Below are positions 7,416-34,822 of a stretch of 64,000 nt of DNA, piece by piece. Position numbers and translations under genes: made by a program. The notes under the pieces are model-generated. The model saw only the letters and a program-made list of their open reading frames with translations. It had not been told where the DNA came from and did not search any database. Numbering within the stretch: position 1 is the first letter of the stretch; the number at the start of each line of letters is the position of its first letter. The DNA is from Escherichia phage vB_EcoM_VR20, in sequence record NC_028894.1. One strand, given 5' to 3'.

Positions 7416-9229
7416 TGATGTTTAACCCTATGCATGATTTCTTTATTTTTGCCGAGATTAAATCCACGTTCGTTCGGATTCCCTAAATAGCCGCATGTTC
7501 TTCTTATTGTGTTCATCTTTTTAGGGTCAGTTTCTCCACAAATAGAACAAACAAATCCGTTTTCAGTAGGAGTCATTTCATGGGTACTTCCACACGTAAA
7601 ACATTTATCTACTGGCATATTAACACCAAAATAATCTAAATGTTGTGCAGCATAATCCCATACAGCCTCAAGACCTTTTAAGTTATTTTTCATATCAGGA
7701 AGTTCAACATAAGAAATGTGACCGCCTGTCGCAATGAAATGATATGGGGCTTCACGAGAAATCTTTTCAAACGGGGTAATATTTTCTTCTACTGAAACAT
7801 GGAAACTGTTAGTGTACCAGCCTTTATCGGTAACATCTTTTACACTTCCGTATTTTTCGGTATCAAGTTTACAGAAGCGATAGCACAGGTTTTCAGCAGG
7901 AGTAGAATACAAACTAAAAGCAAATCCGGTTCTTTCAGTCCACTGCTTAAGACGAGCATTCATTTTAGTTAAAATTTCTTGTCCAATATCACGACCGACA
8001 AGAATATTCAATTCGTGAATACCAATGTATCCCAAAGACACTGAACTTCTACCGTTTTTAAATAACTCAATTATATCGTCATCAGGTTTAAGACGAACCC
8101 CGAATGCACCTTCTTGGTAAAGAATAGGAGCAACAGTCGCTTTAACTCCTTTTAAGGAACTAATTCTACACATCAAAGCTTCAAAACATAAATCCATTCG
8201 CTCATTGAACAATTCAGTAAATTTCTGTTCATTGAACTGTGTTCCAATATAAGAATCTAACGCAATACGAGGAAGATTTAATGTTACAACACCAAGATTA
8301 TTACGTCCATCAAGAATTTCATTACCAGTCGAATCTTTCCATACGCCCAAGAAACTACGACAACCCATTGGAGAAACAGGAATAGATGAACCAGTGATAG
8401 CTTTGTTATTCTTAGCTGAAATGATATCAGGATACATTCTTTTGCTTGCACACTCTAAAGCAAGCTGCTTAATATCATAGTTTGGGTCGTCTTTATAAAG
8501 ATTAACACCTTCTTCAACGAACATAACAAGTTTAGGGAAAATAGGAGTTATCCCATCACGACCAAGACCTTTAATACGATTTTTCAGAATTGCTTTCTGA
8601 ATCATTCGTTCAGTCCAGTCAGTTCCAGTACCAAATGTAATTGTCACAAAAGGAGTCTGACCATTTGAACTAAAGAGAGTATTTACTTCATATTCATAAG
8701 CTTGGAATGCATCATATACGTCTTTTTCTGTTTTAGATTGAGCATAATTCAACGCATCAGTGATTTGCCATTTTTCCGCGTCCTCAATATGTTTCGCATA
8801 GGTACGTTTAACATAAGGAGAAAGTACTTTATCTACATTCGCAAAAGTCGTTCCGCCATATTGATGGGAAGCAACCTGTGCAGTAATTTGTGCCATAATT
8901 GCAGTAGCAACACTGATTGATTTAGGAGTTTCAATCTGTGCATTACCGAGCTTAAACCCGTTCTCAAGCATTCCTTTTAAATCTACTAAACAGCAATTAG
9001 TAAATGGAAGAGCAGGGGAATAATCAATATCATGGAAATGAATAATTCCGCTTTCATGTGCTTTCATAATAAAAGACGCGACCATATTTTTGGCAATGTG
9101 TTTAGATACAATACCAGCCATAAGGTCACGTTGGGTTGGAAAAACACGAGAATCTTTATTAGCATTCTCGTTTAAAAGGTCTTTATTAGTTTTATGAATC
9201 AATCCTTCAATTTCGTTTTCAATTGTCAT
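7412..9229 (-). CDS. nrdD: Anaerobic ribonucleoside-triphosphate reductase NrdD (uninterrupted)
   Basis: 605 aa; C-terminal glycyl-radical/zinc ribbon region CFTCGS...CSICGE; no intron or inserted ORF. Confidence 0.9.
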   Translation of the reverse strand: MTIENEIEGLIHKTNKDLLNENANKDSRVFPTQRDLMAGIVSKHIAKNMVASFIMKAHESGIIHFHDIDYSPALPFTNCCLVDLKGMLENGFKLGNAQIETPKSISVATAIMAQITAQVASHQYGGTTFANVDKVLSPYVKRTYAKHIEDAEKWQITDALNYAQSKTEKDVYDAFQAYEYEVNTLFSSNGQTPFVTITFGTGTDWTERMIQKAILKNRIKGLGRDGITPIFPKLVMFVEEGVNLYKDDPNYDIKQLALECASKRMYPDIISAKNNKAITGSSIPVSPMGCRSFLGVWKDSTGNEILDGRNNLGVVTLNLPRIALDSYIGTQFNEQKFTELFNERMDLCFEALMCRISSLKGVKATVAPILYQEGAFGVRLKPDDDIIELFKNGRSSVSLGYIGIHELNILVGRDIGQEILTKMNARLKQWTERTGFAFSLYSTPAENLCYRFCKLDTEKYGSVKDVTDKGWYTNSFHVSVEENITPFEKISREAPYHFIATGGHISYVELPDMKNNLKGLEAVWDYAAQHLDYFGVNMPVDKCFTCGSTHEMTPTENGFVCSICGETDPKKMNTIRRTCGYLGNPNERGFNLGKNKEIMHRVKHQ

Positions 9230-25366: not shown

Positions 25367-25666
25367 TTAGAAAGAACCAGAGCCTTTAATTGTGTTCTGG
25401 CGACCTTTATTTTCTAATTCAGAATGGTCAATTTCATATGCTTGTGCTACGCCAAAGGCCTTTTTAACTTTAGCTAAAGAACCTTTAGATGTAACAATAT
25501 TAAAAGTATTACCTTTAGTAAAATCAACCAAATCCACTTGTACACCTTGTTTACCGAGGCTTGCGACAATAGCATCAACATATTGTTGGTCTAAATTGCC
25601 CTGGACTCCGATTTGAAATGCTTTAGGAGCTTTAGCTTCTGTGATAAATTCTTGATAAGTTTTCAT
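25367..25666 (-). CDS. Internal-protein-like ORF with capsid targeting sequence
   Basis: 99 aa; N-terminus MKTYQEFITE (CTS-like) with I-x-E site. Confidence 0.55.
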   Translation of the reverse strand: MKTYQEFITEAKAPKAFQIGVQGNLDQQYVDAIVASLGKQGVQVDLVDFTKGNTFNIVTSKGSLAKVKKAFGVAQAYEIDHSELENKGRQNTIKGSGSF

Positions 25667-25674
25667 TTATTCTC

Positions 25675-25725
25675 TCCAAGTTGATGGGATAATTATGCAC
25701 TATCCCATCAAAAAGTAAACAGTTA
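25675..25725 (-). promoter_or_regulatory. Class I early-promoter/leader cassette
   Basis: GTTTAC-17bp-TGCATAATTATCCCATCAACTTGGAGAGAA; inverted repeat GATGGGATA..TATCCCATC around -10. Confidence 0.5.
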
Positions 25726-25986
25726 TGCTTTACCGCCAGAAACAATACCAAAGGTCTCAAAGTCCCATTCAATATCGTCAACATCAACTTTCTTACCAGC
25801 AACCACGAATGCGATTTCGCGACGTTTTGCATAGGTGACAATTTCTTTACCATCACCGCCAAAGAAAGAATAACCATTGCGCTTCATGGTGCCAAAGTCT
25901 TCAGCATCACCAGCAAACGCGCGGACTTTAAAGGAACCAGCAGGAGCTTTAGCAGATTCAGTAATAAATTCTTGATAAGTTTTCAT
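25723..25986 (-). CDS. Internal-protein-like ORF with capsid targeting sequence
   Basis: 87 aa; N-terminus MKTYQEFITES. Confidence 0.55.
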   Translation of the reverse strand: MKTYQEFITESAKAPAGSFKVRAFAGDAEDFGTMKRNGYSFFGGDGKEIVTYAKRREIAFVVAGKKVDVDDIEWDFETFGIVSGGKA

Positions 25987-25999
25987 AATGTCTCTTTAA

Positions 26000-26314
26000 T
26001 TAAGCTTTAGGGAAATCGCGCAAAAACGCATCATAAAGTTTATTACCAATACGACGGAATGCTTTTGCTGCATGAACGTTATCCGGGTTTGCAATTTTAA
26101 TCTGCATTACATGACTACCCGCCCATGATTTAGCTTCGTCATAATAACCTTTAATTTCTTTAATAGTCTTGCGTTTGCCGCCAGGACCATCAACAGTAAT
26201 TTTCCACGAACCCGTGCTTGTTTCACTTGGTGGGGTTAATTGTTCAATCCAGACATAACCGCCTTCAACACGTTTTTGGGTGGATTCAGTAATAAATTCT
26301 TGATAAGTTTTCAT
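26000..26314 (-). CDS. Internal-protein-like ORF with capsid targeting sequence
   Basis: Start taken at internal Met giving MKTYQEFITEST...; 104 aa. Confidence 0.5.
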   Translation of the reverse strand: MKTYQEFITESTQKRVEGGYVWIEQLTPPSETSTGSWKITVDGPGGKRKTIKEIKGYYDEAKSWAGSHVMQIKIANPDNVHAAKAFRRIGNKLYDAFLRDFPKA

Positions 26315-26362
26315 TTTATATTCCATTGTTTGGTTGATAAAATCATTATACAACCTTTTTAG

Positions 26363-26838: not shown

Positions 26839-27120
26839 TTATTTTGTGGAAGCAGCCGAGATATATTTTTCAAGACGCTGTTTCATCAGCGAGCCGTTCT
26901 TAGCGATTTCTTCCGGTTTATCGCACATACGCAATAGAGCTTCAAGCTTAGTGATATCAGATGTCCGCTCAAATTTGCGAGTATCTACCTTACTAGCAAG
27001 TTCGGAAATACGCGCTAACAGACTTTCGGCTTCTACCAAAGCTGTGCCCAGCTTAGTTGCAAATGTGTCAGTAGCTTCATTAAGAGTGGTCACGGTCAAA
27101 AATTCATTATAGGTTTTCAT
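26839..27120 (-). CDS. Internal-protein-like ORF with capsid targeting sequence
   Basis: 93 aa; N-terminus [15 protein letters not shown]. Confidence 0.5.
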
Positions 27121-27640: not shown

Positions 27641-28080
27641 TGGGTCAGTACCTTGTACATCGATTTGCCCATCACGTATTGCCATTGGCTCGGTTTAATC
27701 AGAGCAAAAGCATCGAACTCTGGGACTGTACTACCATCCGGGAAGGTATGATAGGCAGAGCATTTACTATGTCTGAATTGTTCATGCTCAACCGGAACCG
27801 TATACAAAAACAGGTGAAGGTTTTTGTTATCTGAATAACGGAACTCACCGAGGTCTTTTAAGAATGCTGGGTCGTATTGGGTAAATCCGGTTTCTTCTTC
27901 GGTTTCACGAATAGCGGCTTCAATCGGGGATTCACCAGCTTCAACATGACCCTTAGGGATGTCCCATTTGTGCGCAGACATACCTGGTTTACGAGAACCG
28001 GTCACACGACCCATGAATAACTCTTTATCTTCAGTCATGAAAATAATGCCAGCAGATAATTCCTTCACTTTCTTACTCAT
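27628..28080 (-). CDS. nudE: Nudix hydrolase NudE (e.1)
   Basis: 150 aa from MSKKVKELSAGIIFMTED; Nudix box GHVEAGESPIEAAIRETEEETG. Confidence 0.8.
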   Translation of the reverse strand: MSKKVKELSAGIIFMTEDKELFMGRVTGSRKPGMSAHKWDIPKGHVEAGESPIEAAIRETEEETGFTQYDPAFLKDLGEFRYSDNKNLHLFLYTVPVEHEQFRHSKCSAYHTFPDGSTVPEFDAFALIKPSQWQYVMGKSMYKVLTQIFG

Positions 28081-28309
28081 CATCACGTTCCCAAGATTTT
28101 TTAAAGATTTCGGCCACAATAATTTCAACGCATGTTTCTGTTGACGGGCTTTCACTATCAGATATTTGGACCATATAATCGGAAATTGGGCGGAACATAT
28201 CTAAGTCAGTTTCTAAATCATCTTTGATTTTCTCTTCTGATGTACCTGTATCATAGGAATACAGATAAGAATCACATGACTCGGATTTAATATAAATTGC
28301 AATACTCAT
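28073..28309 (-). CDS. Hypothetical acidic protein
   Basis: 78 aa ORF. Confidence 0.35.
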   Translation of the reverse strand: MSIAIYIKSESCDSYLYSYDTGTSEEKIKDDLETDLDMFRPISDYMVQISDSESPSTETCVEIIVAEIFKKSWERDDE

Positions 28310-28896
28310 TTACGGCATTCCTCAATAAAAGAGTTCAATGTATTTTTCTTATTGATATCGTCATATAGCTTTTTAACTTTAGAAATACGAAAAGGTACTT
28401 CAATAGCCATAGTCCATAAAAATGATGCAATAAGTCCAATAGCAGCAGAAGAAACACACGCGCCCATTACAGCTACAGGTGCTTCATTTTTACCTGTCAA
28501 GAAAAACAACAGGATTGGTAAAAATAAGATTCCAGCCCACGCATAAAACCTGGAACAAATTAACTTATCAAATTCATCTTTCCAGGTACGAAATCCATAT
28601 TTCTTGCTATAAGAAATTAATGGGTCAGGTGTCTGTTCTTTGAGTGGTTCTGGTTGATGTCCATTAATGATGTATCCCATTTTATATTCCTTAATTAAAA
28701 GCTCTTTCACATGACGATTGCATCGCGACCAATCAACATTTTCCACCTTGATTCCTTCATCACCATCATCAAGGTTCGCCCAATATTTTTTGGTAATCAT
28801 AAATTCGTCTCTTGATACAATTATACCTGCATTTTCTGCCCGGCGGATGAAGTTTACATCAACACCCATGCACCCAGGTTCATACAGCATTACCAT
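28306..28896 (-). CDS. Membrane protein with C-terminal FIEECRK tail
   Basis: 196 aa; soluble N-domain, two hydrophobic segments, C-terminus ...LNSFIEECRK. Confidence 0.5.
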   Translation of the reverse strand: MVMLYEPGCMGVDVNFIRRAENAGIIVSRDEFMITKKYWANLDDGDEGIKVENVDWSRCNRHVKELLIKEYKMGYIINGHQPEPLKEQTPDPLISYSKKYGFRTWKDEFDKLICSRFYAWAGILFLPILLFFLTGKNEAPVAVMGACVSSAAIGLIASFLWTMAIEVPFRISKVKKLYDDINKKNTLNSFIEECRK

Positions 28897-29576
28897 CCCT
28901 CCATAGGGAATTCCAGATATACTTGAGCATTAACGCGGATTTCATTTGTAATCTTTTTAACACGGTCGGTATTACGAGACACACGACCAAACCAGCGCCA
29001 CCCGTTACTTACTGCACGAGAACCTGTATGCCATGTCTGCCAATCAAACTGGAGCAACGTGCGGTCAGGAGCATCCCACTTGGTTAATTCATTGGACTCA
29101 ATTTTTTCCAGAACTTCTTTATGCCACTGGCGATAGATAAGTTCACCTTCAGGAATCTGACTAAATTGGGCAGTTCCGGTTGCAAAATAAGTAGGACACA
29201 CATCAGCGTTAACAAGACCAAGAATATGTTCAGAATGGTAACGAGGATTATCATAATCAGGTTGCCCTGCAGTAATAAAGTGTTGACCAACCGGAATATC
29301 CGGACGCGGTACATCATCATGGTGATAACCTGGGATAGCAGGATACCAACCAGGCATTAACATATGTACACGAGAATCGAATACGACATTTTCATTAGTC
29401 CAATCAATCGGAAGATTGGTAATAAAACTACGAGTGATTGGGCCGCCTTTATCCCAAGCAAAACTCAAATCACAGTTAAAGAACATCGGTTCATTTTTGA
29501 TTTGATCGTTTTGAACATCGTGAGCAAAACCACTTACGGCACGAGCTCGGCTATTAAACACTTTAGAACTATTCAT
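28890..29576 (-). CDS. Hypothetical protein (possible enzyme, His/Asp-rich)
   Basis: 228 aa ORF; GYHHDD and YHSEH segments; no confident family. Confidence 0.45.
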   Translation of the reverse strand: MNSSKVFNSRARAVSGFAHDVQNDQIKNEPMFFNCDLSFAWDKGGPITRSFITNLPIDWTNENVVFDSRVHMLMPGWYPAIPGYHHDDVPRPDIPVGQHFITAGQPDYDNPRYHSEHILGLVNADVCPTYFATGTAQFSQIPEGELIYRQWHKEVLEKIESNELTKWDAPDRTLLQFDWQTWHTGSRAVSNGWRWFGRVSRNTDRVKKITNEIRVNAQVYLEFPMEGW

Positions 29577-29584
29577 AATATTTT

Positions 29585-29635
29585 CCTCATTGATTGTGGG
29601 ACCATTGTGTCATGGTCCCACTTGGATGTACACAC
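29585..29635 (-). promoter_or_regulatory. Promoter-like element with inverted repeat around -10
   Basis: GTGTACA...GTGGGACCAtgacacaaTGGTCCCAC...GAGGAAAATATT-ATG. Confidence 0.4.
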
Positions 29636-30595
29636 TTATTTTGTGAAAGGGCGAATTAAATGTTGGTTAGCCTTGAAGCGTTTAACATAGTCTTCGCGAC
29701 CCAGGGTGTTGTACATATTAACCACTTCCTGGTAATGTTCCCAGGCATACTCACGGAACCATCCAGAAGTAATGGAGGTACAGACTTTTTCCAGTGCAAT
29801 ATGGAAGCTCACGGATGGAGAAATATTGAACTCATTAGGAACCTGCGAACGCTCCAGAGCGAGCACACATGCTTCTTCATAAACCCCTGCCAGTTTAATA
29901 ACATCAGGGAGTGCTTCAAATTTTTCACGTGAGGTCATGACTTCTGAATCATCCTTCATATAGAACTTATATGCAGGCTTATCAGCAAGCGCCACGGCCT
30001 CGTGGATGGAGTCATGGTCAAGGGTATAGATTGTATCATTAAAGAAAGTTTTCTTGCCCACGTCTAGTTTAGGGTGACTGTATGACAGTGTTTCTGCCTG
30101 ACGCTGCAGCATGATTTTCTGCAGCTCATCATTAAGAACAATACCCTTATTGCGAAGGTAATTAATATGACTCATGGTCTTCAGGAAGAATGGATTGTTC
30201 TTCAGGTAACGATGAGATAATTTAATTGCCAGACAAATATCAGGAGTCGCCCAGTAAAAACCTGTAAGACGGTCCTTTTTAATATGATTTTCAGCATATT
30301 TCAGGAGACGATAACTTGAGGTGAAATCTTCGTCTTGAAGCTCGCCAGTAATTTCTCGTACGTTGGTCAGGGCACGGACAATATAAGCTTCAAAATAGGT
30401 TTCTTTGCCATTGTACATACATTTAAAAGCTTGGACATCAGGGTTATCCACAGGAATATGAGCACCGAACATACGTGCTTTAAAGTGGTTCCATGAGCCT
30501 TGGTCGGCAATGAAATCCCAATCAGAGTTTTCAATTTTCTGACTTTCAATCAGACCAGCGTTATGTAATGCACGAGAACCAATAACTAACATCAT
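29636..30595 (-). CDS. Hypothetical protein
   Basis: 319 aa ORF preceded by promoter-like inverted repeat. Confidence 0.5.
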   Translation of the reverse strand: MMLVIGSRALHNAGLIESQKIENSDWDFIADQGSWNHFKARMFGAHIPVDNPDVQAFKCMYNGKETYFEAYIVRALTNVREITGELQDEDFTSSYRLLKYAENHIKKDRLTGFYWATPDICLAIKLSHRYLKNNPFFLKTMSHINYLRNKGIVLNDELQKIMLQRQAETLSYSHPKLDVGKKTFFNDTIYTLDHDSIHEAVALADKPAYKFYMKDDSEVMTSREKFEALPDVIKLAGVYEEACVLALERSQVPNEFNISPSVSFHIALEKVCTSITSGWFREYAWEHYQEVVNMYNTLGREDYVKRFKANQHLIRPFTK

Positions 30596-30609
30596 AATAT
30601 TTTCCTCAT

Positions 30610-30777
30610 TAGTAAAGACGAGTTACTTCATATTTTCCAAGTGCCGATTTTTTCGCTTCAATTCGTGAGGCAGCAAGATTGGCGGCCTCTAGTGAAGAAA
30701 ATTGAACCACTTGAGAAGTATTCTGTCTTACTCCACCTTGCGGGTGAGTGACAAAAACAATAAGAACATTATACATA
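30610..30777 (-). CDS. Hypothetical small protein (55 aa)
   Basis: ORF MYNVLIVFVTHPQGGVRQ... with conserved GAGGAAAATATT-ATG initiation region; below track cutoff. Confidence 0.3.
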
Positions 30778-30784
30778 ATATTTT

Positions 30785-30830
30785 CCTCATTAGTTGACGA
30801 GATAATGATACTACGTTTCTTTAGGCTTGT
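30785..30830 (-). promoter_or_regulatory. Class I early-promoter/leader cassette (variant)
   Basis: GTGTACA...TATCATTATCTCGTCAACTAATGAGGAAAATATT. Confidence 0.4.
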
Positions 30831-30879
30831 ACACTAAATTTCTGCACATAAGTCCTCCTATCACATCCTTGTGATAATT

Positions 30880-31113
30880 TTAGCAGCTACTCGGATACCA
30901 GATTTTACCATCGGCACGAGCAACGAAGGTACGACCAGCTTCTTCACCATAACAAGAGCTGTTCAACCAGTCTTCAAGACGGACTTCGCCGTCATAATCA
31001 TCAAGCTCAACACCAAAATCTTGAGCAGAAGCCATATCTTTTACTTTCTTATACAGTGCAGCCAGTTCAAGGGCGGCTTTTTCTAATTCAGCATGTTCAA
31101 CAGCAGTAGTCAT
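30880..31113 (-). CDS. Small protein, member 1 of C-terminal WxSSxxC paralog array
   Basis: 77 aa; N-terminal helix, internal WLNSSC and C-terminal ...GKIWYPSSC. Confidence 0.5.
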   Translation of the reverse strand: MTTAVEHAELEKAALELAALYKKVKDMASAQDFGVELDDYDGEVRLEDWLNSSCYGEEAGRTFVARADGKIWYPSSC

Positions 31114-31122
31114 TTTATCACC

Positions 31123-31350
31123 TTAGCAAGACATAGAGGAGTTGTACCAGAAACCTTTACCTTCTGGGATACCATAATCACCGTGAATCCAGTCATATTT
31201 TTTATATTCTGGGCAACCCGCGGGAATATATCGCTGAAGACTGTCAGCATATACATGAAAGTATTCACCAGTTTTATCGGCCAGCTGTTCACCTTCACAG
31301 ATTAGTGCACGGATTTGGTCTTCAATTTCTTTAACAGTTTTAGTAGTCAT
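31123..31350 (-). CDS. Small protein, member 2 of C-terminal WxSSxxC paralog array
   Basis: 75 aa; ends ...GKGFWYNSSMSC. Confidence 0.5.
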   Translation of the reverse strand: MTTKTVKEIEDQIRALICEGEQLADKTGEYFHVYADSLQRYIPAGCPEYKKYDWIHGDYGIPEGKGFWYNSSMSC

Positions 31351-31358
31351 TTATTTCC

Positions 31359-31571
31359 TTAGCATTCGTAAGAGGAGGACACCCAGGAGTTACCGCTAAT
31401 AGTAATACAACCATTATAAAGCGTGATATGTTGTTCCAGATTACGCTGACCATCGATATAGATATCAGCTTCTTCACGTTCTTCTTTACAAATCTGGATA
31501 ACATTTTCAATAGCTGCCGCGGCAGTACGGATTGCACAATCTAATTCACGAGACATAACATTCCTTAACAT
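31359..31571 (-). CDS. Small protein, member 3 of C-terminal WxSSxxC paralog array
   Basis: 70 aa; ends ...SGNSWVSSSYEC. Confidence 0.45.
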   Translation of the reverse strand: MLRNVMSRELDCAIRTAAAAIENVIQICKEEREEADIYIDGQRNLEQHITLYNGCITISGNSWVSSSYEC

Positions 31572-31846
31572 TCAGCAGAAGAGGACACCCAACCACCATT
31601 TTCCAGGTCAGTTGTATAGTCATGAGTATTAACAATAGCCCATTCAGGATGACCATGTTCTTCCCAATGAGCAAGGTCAGCTTTCAGGGCGCCAGGAGAA
31701 TAATAGTCACCGCCCATACCGCGAGCAGGGTATATATTAAAATGAGTCTCATATTTGTCTGCAATTTCCTCGGCACGACGAATAGCTTTATGGATGTCAT
31801 TTACTGCGTTAGCCAGTTCTTTATTTTTACGGTAATCATTCATCAT
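31565..31846 (-). CDS. Small protein, member 4 of C-terminal WxSSxxC paralog array
   Basis: 93 aa; EEIADKYETHFNIYP...GGWVSSSAEC. Confidence 0.5.
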   Translation of the reverse strand: MMNDYRKNKELANAVNDIHKAIRRAEEIADKYETHFNIYPARGMGGDYYSPGALKADLAHWEEHGHPEWAIVNTHDYTTDLENGGWVSSSAEC

Positions 31847-31855
31847 AGCGTTTCC

Positions 31856-32146
31856 TTAGCACATTGCCGAAGAGGAGACCCAAGCACCAACTGTAACGAC
31901 ACCGTTTTCAACTTCACCGCCGTTGTTTTCAATTTCATCTTTAAACCACTGGGAGCATTCATAACCGACAGGATAATATGTACGGCCCGAACCATAATCA
32001 CCGGTACCAAATTGGATACCATATTCATCTGCGATTTCTTCACAGTGTTTTTCAATTTCAGAGGTCTTATTTAGAAGAGAATAGATAGCTTTTTCTGCAG
32101 ATTTCTCATCATAATACTTGGGGATAGCAATTTCAATTTTATTCAT
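31856..32146 (-). CDS. Small protein, member 5 of C-terminal WxSSxxC paralog array
   Basis: 96 aa; EEIADEYGIQFGTGDYGSGRTYYP...GAWVSSSAMC. Confidence 0.5.
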   Translation of the reverse strand: MNKIEIAIPKYYDEKSAEKAIYSLLNKTSEIEKHCEEIADEYGIQFGTGDYGSGRTYYPVGYECSQWFKDEIENNGGEVENGVVTVGAWVSSSAMC

Positions 32147-32496
32147 GATTTACATTCCTTAATAAAGGTTTCAAGGTCATTACGTTTTGTTTTGTCTAGG
32201 AACTTATTATACTCAGCCATTGCTGAAGCATATCTCTTCCGACTAGGAGCATTCACGGCGTTTGTGTGACAGATATCATACACAACAGGTATAAAATAAG
32301 ACACAACAGCCGGAGCGATTATCATAAAGAAGCCCATCTCAATAGGCATCACTCCCTCGATTGCAGCCATAACCGTGGTCATTACCAGACCAACCAAACC
32401 ACCAAGCATGGCGGTGACAATCCCTAATAATAAATTGGCACCAATATCATATTCAGCCAATTGATAAACATGTGATGCAAGATTAGGCCGTTCCAT
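32143..32496 (-). CDS. Two-TM membrane protein with C-terminal FIKECKS tail
   Basis: Start at internal Met (MERPNLASHV); hydrophobic segments; C-terminus ...LETFIKECKS. Confidence 0.45.
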   Translation of the reverse strand: MERPNLASHVYQLAEYDIGANLLLGIVTAMLGGLVGLVMTTVMAAIEGVMPIEMGFFMIIAPAVVSYFIPVVYDICHTNAVNAPSRKRYASAMAEYNKFLDKTKRNDLETFIKECKS

Positions 32497-32842
32497 TACG
32501 AACCTCCTTAATAAATTCTTCGGCACATTTAATTTTGTGCTCTTCTTGCAGGGAAACACATTTTTGTTCCCACTCTTTAACTCGTCCCCGATAACCTTTA
32601 TTCATATGATTTTGATGCCACACATTTATCAATACCATACACAGGACTGTAATAAAAGGAGCTGCAATTACTAGCGTCCAGGCGACTCCAACACTAATGA
32701 TATTCATATCCCCACAAAGCACCATCATTATAACCCCAACGATGCACATGGACAGAGCTCCAAATGGAGGCATAAGGTCTTTATCAATCTTGTCTGCGTA
32801 CACAAATTTTTCTGGTTTACTTGGCAGATATAACGTTCGCAT
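32483..32842 (-). CDS. Two-TM membrane protein, paralog of 32143..32496
   Basis: Start at internal Met MRTLYLPSK with AAAGGGG SD; C-terminus ...EEFIKEVRNGTA. Confidence 0.45.
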   Translation of the reverse strand: MRTLYLPSKPEKFVYADKIDKDLMPPFGALSMCIVGVIMMVLCGDMNIISVGVAWTLVIAAPFITVLCMVLINVWHQNHMNKGYRGRVKEWEQKCVSLQEEHKIKCAEEFIKEVRNGTA

Positions 32843-33371
32843 TTTGAACCCCTTTAGCATATTCACGACATTCAGCAATAAAACGATTAAGCTTTCGTTT
32901 TTGTTTATGACTTTCTAATGTGTACTCAGACGTCAAATCAAGAAGCTCAGCTTTATCATAATTTTTAATATCAGTATAAGCTGGCCGGCGGTCAACCATT
33001 CCAAATACATCACCATTTTCTAGCGCCACATAACATACTAAATGGTAATCATCATCTGCCATATTAAGAAGTATACAATCATCGCTCTCGTTTAAAGCAT
33101 ATACTGAATAACGTAGTCCAGCGAATTCCACTCGTTGAATACCCAGATTTACATCAATAATTTCCAAGGCATCTGCGAAAGAAAGGTCTTCAGCTAAAGC
33201 AAAAATAAAAGGCAATTTTGTAGTATCGCCACGGCTAGTTGTTCTTCTTAAGAAATCATTGGAATAACCCAAGTCACCGCGGATTCTATAAAGAACTGTA
33301 TTAGTTTCAGTAGCAAGGCCACTACCGCCAAACCAGTCTACATTTGATATAAGGTCAGTATATAAGCTCAT
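32817..33371 (-). CDS. Hypothetical acidic protein with C-terminal FIAECRE motif
   Basis: 184 aa from MSLYTDLIS (GGAGAGGAG SD); C-terminal ...KLNRFIAECREYAKG. Confidence 0.45.
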   Translation of the reverse strand: MSLYTDLISNVDWFGGSGLATETNTVLYRIRGDLGYSNDFLRRTTSRGDTTKLPFIFALAEDLSFADALEIIDVNLGIQRVEFAGLRYSVYALNESDDCILLNMADDDYHLVCYVALENGDVFGMVDRRPAYTDIKNYDKAELLDLTSEYTLESHKQKRKLNRFIAECREYAKGVQNANVISAK

Positions 33372-33414
33372 AATTTTCTCCTCTCCCAATTAGGGGGCTT
33401 TGCCCCCCTTTATC

Positions 33415-34008
33415 TTACTTAAGTGAATTGATGTATTCTTCAATGTCAGCGGATGTGGTATCCACACCAACCTGTGGACCTTTGAAGGTTTCAACACGCA
33501 TCAGAGTGTCTTCAATATCAATCTTAGTCAATGCAGCGATTTCAACAACATCATCTGCGGTTGCAATACCTAGGGCAGACACCTTACGGGTTTCGCGGAT
33601 GTATTCCAGTTTAACAGCTAGTTCCTGACGAGAGTCATCCAGCTCTTTAACTTTCAATTTAATTTCATTACGCATTTCAACATAATCATCTGCCTTCTTA
33701 CGAAGTTGTTTAGCAGTGCGACGATACAGGAGACCCAGTTTAGCATGGACCTGGACATCAGCACCATCAGCAATCAGTTTACGAATTTCACGCTCTTTTG
33801 AAGCGGCGAGCTGGTCTTTTTCATTCGCTAGCTCGCGGATGCGTTTTTCTTCATTAACAGACTTAACGTGGGCAGTCTGGAGCTCAGTAATCTTATCAAT
33901 CAGGGTAGAAGCAGCTTTAGTATACTGGTCTTCAATAGACAGGTTTTGCGCCATTGCAGTACCCAGTTTGGAGCGGATAAATTCAACAAGTTTCTTTAAA
34001 GTATTCAT
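33415..34008 (-). CDS. Coiled-coil protein (possibly PspA/IM30-like)
   Basis: 197 aa, largely predicted helical with heptad-like charged repeats; family assignment unverified. Confidence 0.4.
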
Positions 34009-34482: not shown

Positions 34483-34516
34483 AATATTTTCCTCAAGGGG
34501 CTTTCGCCCCAATCAT

Positions 34517-34822
34517 TTAAATTTTGTTTTCCTGCACACCATAATAAAGTTCATCAGACACAATATCCAGGATGCGGCGAACATATTCATCATGGTATTG
34601 GCAGTCAAAATCAAATGCAACAGTAGTTTCCGCTTCACGAGTGAATTTAACTTGCACATTCAGGTGATTAACAACGTTAGTTAATTTATCAGTAAAGAAC
34701 TCTTTTGCTACCGCCTGTTGGACTTGCACTTTGAACTTGGTGTTACGAATCATATTTTCAGCAGATGTGAAATTACCAGTTTTATCAAAGTCAACAAGCG
34801 CCAGGTTGATGATGAATTTCAT
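34517..34822 (-). CDS. Hypothetical protein
   Basis: 101 aa ORF preceded by class II leader cassette. Confidence 0.45.
   Translation of the reverse strand: MKFIINLALVDFDKTGNFTSAENMIRNTKFKVQVQQAVAKEFFTDKLTNVVNHLNVQVKFTREAETTVAFDFDCQYHDEYVRRILDIVSDELYYGVQENKI

Follow-up and report, generated by a model that had tools for sequence, protein, structure and literature searches.

The tail-bearing genes of the e.6-e.2 block

The window analysed here, a stretch of 64,000 nucleotides from Escherichia phage vB_EcoM_VR20 (sequence record NC_028894.1), carries between positions 28306 and 33371 four genes, called A to D in the following, whose products share a short tail of the form F-I-x-E-C/V-R/K at or near the C-terminus. 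Judged by alignment with relatives, this tail is conserved across T4-like phages, while the protein bodies in front of it change beyond recognition. The DNA of the region (28000-33500) is 93% identical to that of Escherichia phages TH44, TH57 and P896 and 92% identical to that of Shigella phage SP18, a Gaprivervirus in the Tevenvirinae, and the window represents an SP18/Gaprivervirus-like relative of T4. All genes treated here (e.6, A-D, the W-x-S-S-x-x-C genes, nudE, and e) lie on the minus strand and follow each other in the order of transcription as e.6, D, C, B, five W-x-S-S-x-x-C genes, three further genes, A, a gene of 78 amino acids (aa), nudE, and the lysozyme gene e. The boundaries of A-D are the same in the annotation of SP18, which labels A as e.2 and C as e.4. 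The open reading frames (ORFs), their transmembrane (TM) segments, and the associated signals are the following.

28306..28896, minus strand: protein A, e.2 ortholog, 196 aa; ORF ending LNSFIEECRK before the stop, with an N-terminal soluble part, two TM segments, and the tail
28492-28548 and 28420-28476, minus strand: TM segments of A (Kyte-Doolittle scan)
28312..28338, minus strand: tail motif LNSFIEECR of A, followed by a Lys codon and the stop (translation)
28319-28323, minus strand: Shine-Dalgarno sequence GAGGA for the next gene, in the Glu-Glu codons of A; the next ATG (28307-28309) overlaps the stop (ATGA)
32143..32496, minus strand: protein B, e.3 ortholog, 117 aa; ORF ending LETFIKECKS before the stop
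32377-32433 and 32299-32355, minus strand: TM segments of B, followed by a 51-residue basic cytoplasmic segment that ends in the tail
32149..32175, minus strand: tail motif LETFIKECK of B (translation)
32156-32160, minus strand: Shine-Dalgarno sequence AAGGA in the Lys-Glu codons of B, serving the first W-x-S-S-x-x-C gene (ATG 32144-32146, ATGA overlap)
32483..32842, minus strand: protein C, e.4 ortholog, 119 aa; ORF ending EEFIKEVRNGTA before the stop
32711-32767 and 32627-32683, minus strand: TM segments of C (Kyte-Doolittle scan)
32498..32524, minus strand: tail motif AEEFIKEVR of C (translation)
32503-32509, minus strand: Shine-Dalgarno sequence AAGGAGG in the Lys-Glu-Val codons of C, serving e.3, whose ATG starts at 32496
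32817..33371, minus strand: protein D, most likely a very diverged e.5 ortholog, 184 aa; soluble, with zero TM segments, immediately downstream of e.6
32865..32891, minus strand: tail motif LNRFIAECR of D, 15 residues from the end and without a Shine-Dalgarno sequence inside it
32841..32864, minus strand: stretch EYAKGVQN after the D motif, carrying the initiation region of e.4 (AAAGGGG 32849-32855, ATG from 32842)
33415..34008, minus strand: e.6, a conserved coiled-coil protein and constant neighbour, candidate partner only

An earlier sequence-only reading had pointed out these four ORFs and their common tail. They are present on the minus strand at the positions it gave and their tails are translated as it quoted them, with one correction: the ends of A, B, and C are exact, while D continues past EYAKG for ten more residues, VQNANVISAK, before its stop (EYAKGVQNANVISAK). 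A, B, and C have two hydrophobic segments each and D has none in the Kyte-Doolittle scan, in agreement with the prediction of two TM segments before the tail in three of the four proteins. Moreover, Lys and Arg number 0-1 in the loops between the TM segments of A, B, and C and 8-9 in their C-terminal segments, a distribution that, by the positive-inside rule, makes the tails cytoplasmic, as had been proposed.

The starts of two of the genes deserve comment. The 32 N-terminal residues of A (28801-28896, minus strand) are absent from the e.2 PHROG profile and from T4-type e.2 proteins, similarity to the e.2 family begins at Met33 (MITKKYW...), and the long start has a GGAGGG just one base before its ATG, all of which makes the true start of A uncertain. 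In C, an in-frame ATG six codons upstream (32858-32860) would give an e.4 of 125 aa (MLKGFKMRT...); it is used by some database entries and matches the start position of T4 e.4. This upstream ATG has no Shine-Dalgarno sequence here, while the 119-aa start has AAAGGGG.

Statistical support for the motif

The pattern FI.E[CV][RK] has four matches in the 290 six-frame ORFs of the window, all of them in A-D and within the last 16 residues, whereas 5000 residue shuffles of the same ORFs predict 0.048 matches anywhere and 0.009 in the last 16 residues. The motif is thus significant against composition-matched expectation, with the qualification that such a test is partly circular, the pattern having been written from A-D themselves. 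An independent test used a 13-column hidden Markov model (HMM) built only from tails of T4, HX01, and Klebsiella phages. This profile ranks A-D first to fourth among the 290 ORFs with 10.9-14.9 bits, while the top score in 200 shuffles was 4.5 +/- 1.6 on average and never exceeded 10.5; matches of at least 9 bits numbered 0.02 per shuffle. Each of A-D therefore carries the motif within about 25 residues of its C-terminus and scores above background with a profile taken from other genomes. Scoring with profiles this short is insensitive: without T4-type sequences, the tails of T4 e.3 and e.4 score 1-2 bits in spite of being in register with those of B and C, and thus a missing profile match does not prove a missing tail.

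A chance resemblance of four short C-termini might be suspected from a pattern with just six defined positions that was drawn after the sequences had been seen. Against 0.05 expected matches, four were found; a profile that owes nothing to the window puts all four on top; and the motif recurs in 11 genera, so that coincidence has a practically negligible probability.

The only near-match outside A-D in the window is an ORF of 48 aa (34513-34659, minus strand) that ends in NFIMVCRKTKFK and scores 9.3 bits. It sits inside a longer ORF (34517-34822) in another frame and is probably due to chance.

Orthology with T4 genes and kinship among the four proteins

The order e.6, e.5, e.4, e.3, ..., e.2, nudE, e of the window map agrees with the annotation of SP18 and with T4, and this synteny, together with similarity, identifies A, B, and C as orthologs of T4 e.2, e.3, and e.4. 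B matches T4 e.3 with its tail in register (BLASTP E 1e-10; PHROG phrog_2330, E 7e-46), C matches T4 e.4 (BLASTP E 4e-17; phrog_2604, E 2e-45), and A matches T4 e.2 in the N-terminal part only, T4 e.2 being truncated (BLASTP E 2e-15; phrog_2203, E 1e-64). The annotated T4 e.2 (103 aa) is a split or frameshifted gene whose tail lies in another frame, since a T4 ORF of 36 aa (locus L003, 73-183, minus strand; T4 genome 67472-67582) ends in KKYAQNLNNFITECRKLK, which is the tail of full-length e.2 in other Tequatroviruses.

D is less easily placed. It belongs to phrog_8788 (E 2e-112), with weak matches to phrog_2607, the family of T4 e.5 (E 0.005, residues 75-177), and to phrog_13418 (E 0.02), and BLASTP against T4 e.5 aligns only the tails (LNRFIAECREYAKGV with LEKFVKECREYVKAI, E 2e-4). 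Profile alignment (hhalign) of the D body with T4 e.5-type bodies is weak but colinear (P 0.15 and 0.01), as is its match with a Klebsiella e.5-type body (E 0.004), a protein that in turn matches phrog_2607 (E 6e-10). This chain of weak colinear matches, the PHROG cross-matches, and the place beside e.6 suggest that D is most likely a very diverged ortholog of e.5, and that the proteins in the e.5 position most likely form one very diverged old superfamily, always beside e.6, of which the motif is the best-kept piece.

Within the window, the paralogy of B and C seen in the sequence-only reading is borne out by BLASTP (E 5e-6, 84 colinear residues), A resembles B across TM2 and in the tail (E 5e-4), and PHROG cross-matches connect the e.2, e.3, and e.4 families. 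By these alignments, A, B, and C are distant paralogs across the TM hairpin and the tail. The description of the four proteins as otherwise divergent consequently needs to be tempered: the tail is far better kept than the bodies, but A, B, and C are related and D is most likely a very diverged e.5 ortholog, and common descent explains part of the tail sharing.

Searches of domain collections with A-D gave zero above-threshold matches in Pfam and NCBIfam, where the NCBIfam matches were all sub-threshold, and no match at all in PADLOC. In PHROG, the families of e.3, e.4, and D are labelled as of unknown function and that of e.2 just as 'membrane protein', while e.4 relatives carry the precomputed label PF26873. 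No description of the e.2-e.5 genes or of the shared tail was found in the literature, in a search outside of which most of the older T4 literature lies. The shared tail is thus apparently undescribed, although it belongs to a familiar class, that of short motifs common to a family of phage accessory proteins. Some e.4 homologs (P0045) are labelled 'sulfurtransferase', a name to which domain searches give no support; one of them lies on a 508-nucleotide (nt) contig filed under Xanthomonas pisi that looks like phage contamination.

Reach of the tail and divergence of the bodies

In T4 itself, the tails read FVIDCRK in e.3 (MKEFVIDCRKIK), FVKESRC in e.4 (IMKFVKESRCKSQS), and FVKECRE in e.5 (LEKFVKECREYVKAITIPSK), and no copy of the tail outside the e cluster came up when the entire T4 genome was scanned in six frames. 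T4 e.2-e.5 (PHROG families 2203, 2330, 2604, and 2607/8788) thus have the gene order of the window and, in e.3, e.4, and e.5, the same tail. The two differ in that five W-x-S-S-x-x-C genes and three others separate e.3 from e.2 in the window, in that BLASTP does not align the two e.5 bodies, and in that the split T4 e.2 has its tail left only in the 36-aa ORF.

Beyond T4, neighbourhoods of e.4 or e.6 were gathered from an annotated phage collection, a search of viral contigs having given just 8 and 7 related loci. Orthologs of the individual families are present in roughly 560-1100 phage records. Tequatrovirus, Mosigvirus, Jiaodavirus, Winklervirus, Karamvirus, Gualtarvirus, and Biquartavirus all have the motif, as do Ishigurovirus, a Klebsiella phage of about 179 kb, and Pseudotevenvirus. 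It recurs in 11 T4-like genera in all, and in 11 of 11 genera checked, the gene directly after e.6 bears it. Tail genes were counted per locus as follows.

HX01 (Mosigvirus): 5
Klebsiella Jiaodavirus: 5
Serratia Winklervirus: 4
Enterobacter Karamvirus: 6
Providencia Gualtarvirus: 6
Aeromonas Biquartavirus: 1, soluble
Aeromonas phage 65.2 (Emmerichvirinae): 2
Klebsiella phage of about 179 kb (probably Slopekvirus-like): 1
Citrobacter Pseudotevenvirus: 1

Across these sequences, the wider consensus is hydrophobic-x-x-F/Y/W-I/V-x-x-C/V/I/M/S-R/K. Counting from the aromatic residue as position 0 (F, W, or Y), the 67 distinct tails have a hydrophobic residue at -3 in 88% of cases, a position absent from every search pattern, I or V at +1, a basic residue at +2 in 60%, an acidic one at +3 in 64%, C at +4 in 44 of 67 (I, V, S, or M in the others), R at +5 in 58 of 67 (K in the others), and often basic residues at +6 to +8. 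Outside the Escherichia-phage lineages, +3 holds G, Y, M, D, H, R, K, or Q in place of Glu, with F, I/V, C, and R retained. The distance from the motif to the C-terminus varies from 0 to 25 residues, which indicates that recognition does not depend on a free carboxyl end.

The bodies behave very differently. With the tails cut off, BLASTP groups 66 tail-bearing ORFs into at least 20 clusters, mostly two-TM hairpins but with at least six soluble body types, and body-only hhalign comparisons link e.3 with e.4 (P 7e-4) and are mostly not significant for the other families. The soluble proteins include the e.5 types and proteins of 102 aa in Klebsiella, 131 aa in Enterobacter, and 158 aa in Providencia phages, and in an alignment of 21 TM-type members FIKECR is the sole consensus. 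When 1.84 billion representative proteins were searched by HMMER with a mixed profile of two TM segments plus tail, 16 clusters came back, 15 of which hold proteins of the same kind (75-130 aa) and the last a repeat protein of 1780 aa, taken as spurious. No wider family was detectable among these representatives, and word-indexed protein searches gave just close relatives.

These data bear directly on the possibility that inheritance is the whole story, i.e., that the genes are tandem duplicates of an ancestral small membrane protein whose tail was kept for internal reasons (as a helix cap, for a topology with the C-terminus inside, or for homo-oligomers), with no partner common to the families. 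The similarities of B with C and of A with B over the TM region and the tail, the cross-matches among e.2, e.3, and e.4, the tandem arrangement in every genome, and group-specific tail flavours (F[IV]KE[VSI]R in e.4, FI[RKQ]G[IV]R in the MIKT family, x-Y-C-R in several e.5 types) would all be expected from it, as would a predicted e.4 structure in which the tail is the end of one long helix (see below). However, the motif also closes soluble proteins without TM segments that cannot be aligned to the membrane members, it is the only recognisable part shared by the e.5 proteins of T4 and the window, and one Aeromonas phage locus contains just one copy, a soluble one; a fold-internal element is not expected to remain constant while the surrounding folds all change. 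Inheritance as a complete account is therefore regarded as rather unlikely.

The five tandem small genes of the window (30880-32146, minus strand) that end in W-x-S-S-x-x-C have Cys as their last residue, and similar genes occur among the tail genes of HX01 (L013, 6718-7512), Serratia (L023, 8829-9394), and Enterobacter (L025, 8299-8825) phages. Because such genes are missing from T4 and the Klebsiella Jiaodavirus, both of which do have tails, the W-x-S-S-x-x-C proteins are not obligate partners of the tails.

Codon usage, ribosome-binding sites, and the e.4 deletion

The codons of the tail indicate that selection on it acts at the protein level. The conserved Arg is encoded by CGT, CGC, CGG, CGA, AGA, and AGG, thus crossing between the CGN and AGR codon families, Ile/Val by ATT, ATC, ATA, GTT, GTG, and GTA, and Cys by TGT and TGC, while Phe also varies synonymously. 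At the same time, the tail DNA has a second function. The I-[E/K]-E codons read ATT GAG GAA in A, ATT AAG GAA in B, and ATT AAG GAG in C, and they contain the Shine-Dalgarno sequences GAGGA, AAGGA, and AAGGAGG, respectively, from which the next ATG lies 6-9 nt on, overlapping or preceding the stop. Among 58 distinct tail DNAs, the best ribosome-binding site falls inside the six motif codons in 36 and beyond the motif in 10, while 12 gave no site; inside the motif, it occupies the +2/+3 codons or the Arg codon and the next one. Moreover, the codon AAG is used for 14 of 25 Lys residues at +2 (56%), compared with a background of 25% in the same loci. Translational coupling thus shapes part of the motif, including the 'x-E' and the closeness to the stop, and the E and the exact C-terminal place in the motif as first described are partly products of the next gene's Shine-Dalgarno sequence and of the ATGA overlap.

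It could accordingly be asked whether the initiation region of the next gene (A/U-rich, with Shine-Dalgarno sequence, spacer, and ATGA), combined with a recombination repeat, is what is conserved and the peptide only a by-product. The ATT RAG GAR codons of A, B, and C, the number of sites within motif codons, and the preference for AAG are in line with this idea, and so are the Providencia flavour CRG[EK], whose AGA/CGA GGA is itself a ribosome-binding site, and the loss of e.4 in JS98-type phages exactly between 16-nt near-repeats in the tails. Yet the Arg switches between codon families and the other conserved residues vary synonymously, and the motif persists wherever the ribosome-binding site falls: in the Lys-Glu codons, in the Arg codon and the next one, downstream, or with no coupled gene at all. 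The D motif contains none, likewise several other e.5-type tails, whereas T4 e.5 has AAGGA inside the motif; in a Klebsiella gene (L012, 7663-7971), the tail is present with no coupled gene, the next start lying 30 nt past the stop; and it is the +3 Glu that is lost outside the Escherichia-phage lineages, with F, I/V, C, and R kept. The codon data largely refute a nucleic-acid constraint as the sole cause of the conservation, which makes this a very unlikely explanation.

The loss of e.4 shows the tail DNA in a further role. In JS98-type phages, which lack e.4, the ATG of e.4 is joined exactly to that of e.3 (L004, about 8520-8535), and D ends in FIAECREYAKEVQNGTA, where EYAKEVQNGTA is a chimera of the D and e.4 tails. 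In the window, the arms of a 16-nt near-repeat, AAAGGGGTTCAAAATG (32840-32855) and AAGGAGGTTCGTAATG (32494-32509), lie around the start codons of e.4 and e.3. Compared at the DNA level, EYAKGVQN after the D motif repeats the e.4 tail EFIKEVRN in degenerate form, and the junction indicates that tail DNA acted as a microhomology or recombination joint for the precise deletion of e.4. Of the suggestion that the tail is a domain-shuffled module, this recombination at the tails is the part that survives; transfer of a tail onto an unrelated protein was not seen.

In T4-type hyperplastic regions, short conserved sequences at gene borders mark the gain and loss of ORFs. The near-repeat in the two tails, which marks the e.4 indel, resembles the cassettes of such regions, but it lies in coding sequence, is also a conserved peptide, and is not a promoter or stem-loop element. 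Promoter-like sites in the block are at chance level (23 found, 23.5 expected).

The constant neighbour e.6

Far better conserved than the neighbouring proteins, e.6 is 75% identical to T4 e.6 and 30-33% identical to its counterparts in Providencia phages, the large Klebsiella phage, and Pseudotevenvirus, and its gene stands directly upstream of a tail-bearing gene in 11 of 11 genera checked. Both ends of the protein are conserved (M..LKK.VEFIR... and ...TSADV.EYI.SLK), and the C-terminal end, kept in 11 of 11 genera, is loosely tail-like with 3.4 bits at most. No Pfam relative above threshold and no relative in the Protein Data Bank (PDB) were found for e.6. Its identification as PspA/IM30 was rejected, as there is no PspA_IM30 match in Pfam at E up to 10 and only coiled-coil families appear below threshold. 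The label 'host specificity protein' that e.6 bears in some records is supported by nothing here. A G+C-rich perfect hairpin (33392-33410, GGGGGCAAAGCCCCC on the gene strand) lies in the 43 nt that separate e.6 from D and stands right before the ribosome-binding site of D.

Comparison with known terminal motifs and small membrane proteins

The capsid targeting sequence of T4 is N-terminal and is removed by the head protease. Like the tails, it is a short peptide on otherwise unrelated T4 proteins that gives them one destination, and it has a similar core, aromatic-x-x-F-I-x-E. In contrast, it is found on soluble head proteins and is cleaved, while the tails are C-terminal, belong mostly to membrane proteins, and add the C-R pair. 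A sorting or turnover signal, either a relative of this sequence (MKTYQEFIAE) or a degradation tag, was considered on these grounds. The shared Y-x-x-F-I-x-E, the likeness of RFIAEC in D to EFIAEA, the 4-7 bits that the tail profiles give to the targeting sequence as a short peptide, more than to any other known motif tried, and internal-protein genes a few kb away in the window are what this proposal can draw on. In the proteome scan, however, targeting sequences score 1.5-3 bits against 11-18 bits for the tails, packaging into heads is at odds with proteins that are mostly membrane-embedded, and the +3 Glu needed for I-x-E cleavage is not conserved; a motif 0-25 residues from the end is also ill-suited to readers of the free C-terminus such as ClpX or Tsp. 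Such a signal is accordingly held to be highly improbable, slightly more so than the nucleic-acid account, and the classification of the tails as capsid targeting sequences was rejected on their C-terminal place, low scores, and variable +3 position, the resemblance being kept as a weak lead only. Paralogous ORFs at 25367-26353 and 26839-27120 (minus strand) begin with an MKTYQEFITE-like capsid targeting leader of internal head proteins, and T4 gp61.1 begins MKTFKEFIKE.

The clamp-binding ends of gp43 (SLDFLFG), gp55 (SLDFLYEAND), and gp33 (TLDFLL) and the C-terminal peptide of FtsZ are likewise terminal helices or strands of hydrophobic or aromatic character, and they bring many proteins to one hub. 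One tail lineage, 'EALDFIRGIR', resembles the clamp-binding LDFL, a lead only. The tails differ from these peptides in a basic rather than hydrophobic +2 position and in the C-R pair, and mimicry of the clamp-binding or FtsZ type was rejected, as the tail profiles score those peptides at or below 0 bits.

In size and in their two-TM hairpin, the membrane members are similar to the superinfection exclusion proteins Imm and SieB. T4 genes in this orientation are expressed early, a property shared with Imm-type genes. Nevertheless, the C-terminus of T4 Imm is quite different from the tails, and the assignment of B to SieB (PF14163) was rejected with 11.8 bits against a gathering cut-off of 26 (E 0.18). 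DUF3487 and other Pfam or NCBIfam matches of the tail proteins were likewise rejected as sub-threshold, and A-D do not belong to a known anti-phage defence system or a named bacterial family by the PADLOC and NCBIfam searches.

A proposed shared interaction helix

The four hydrophobic positions of the tail, -3, 0, +1, and +4, would share one face of a helix (i, i+3, i+4, i+7). An AlphaFold model of C (e.4), computed from an alignment of 12 sequences, is a plain helical hairpin with a helix at residues 16-43, a short loop, and a continuous helix at 51-115 that ends at the Arg of the motif and combines TM2 and the cytoplasmic segment in one. If the model is right, the e.4 tail is the tip of a cytoplasmic helix of about 35 residues continuing from TM2.

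We consider the chances about even that the tail is a shared protein-protein interaction helix, that is, a docking or assembly handle. In this proposal, e.2-e.5 form a block of tandem, tightly overlapping genes between e.6 and nudE/e whose products would share an amphipathic helix of 9-13 residues near the C-terminus with the consensus acidic, hydrophobic, x, x, F/Y/W, I/V, basic, x, C (or V/I/M/S), R/K, basic. In e.2, e.3, and e.4, the tail would be the tip of a cytoplasmic helix like that predicted for e.4, whereas in e.5 it would close a soluble domain, and the fast-changing 'heads' would be TM hairpins with variable loops or variable soluble domains. The helix would bind one conserved cytoplasmic partner, for which e.6 is the first candidate and a host protein the alternative, or it would bundle members of the family together. 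The single soluble copy in the Aeromonas phage locus mildly favours an outside partner or self-association over an obligatory pairing of membrane paralogs. In addition, the tail DNA often holds the ribosome-binding site of the next overlapping gene and provides short repeats through which the block loses or gains genes. The shared docking partner suggested in the sequence-only reading agrees with this much: a cytoplasmic tail, conserved at the protein level on varied bodies, is the pattern expected of an interaction motif.

Several observations weigh against the interaction helix. The paralogy of A, B, and C means that part of the tail sharing is inheritance, as their alignments indicate, and positions +2/+3, in some lineages also +5/+6, are partly shaped by the ribosome-binding site. 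The +4 Cys is swapped within one family (FIKQMK, FINGIR, FIRGVR, FIKDCR), and thus no Cys chemistry can be claimed. The e.4 model is of moderate confidence (mean predicted local distance difference test (pLDDT) score of 65, with 66-74 across the second helix), and that of D, from a shallow alignment, is too poor to use (pLDDT 47.7). Finally, what recommends e.6 as a candidate partner is only its adjacency and its conservation.

A more far-reaching version, which we regard as unlikely and put forward as speculation, is that the e.6-e.2 block is a modular system in which e.6 would be the hub, or one host protein the target, and changing modules would be plugged in via the C-terminal helix and be recruited or lost by recombination at the tail-coding repeats.

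Implications for T4-like phages

About half of the T4 genes are without known function, and the e.2-e.8 block is among them. In this block, one short motif is found on one to six genes of each locus, in T4 and as far away as Aeromonas phages, and outlasts all other parts of the proteins. It offers an experimental handle, namely a peptide of 10-13 residues, point mutations of its F and R, and one candidate partner. Moreover, a single stretch of DNA appears to serve as protein motif, as ribosome-binding site of the next gene, and as recombination joint in a compact phage genome, and estimates of selection or the design of deletions in the block must allow for this triple use. If the modular reading were true, the block would have the layout of an arms-race toolkit, e.g., one that serves in counter-defence, excludes other phages, or controls the host envelope, and its tail would correspond, in the cytoplasm and at the C-terminus, to the capsid targeting sequence of the T4 internal proteins.

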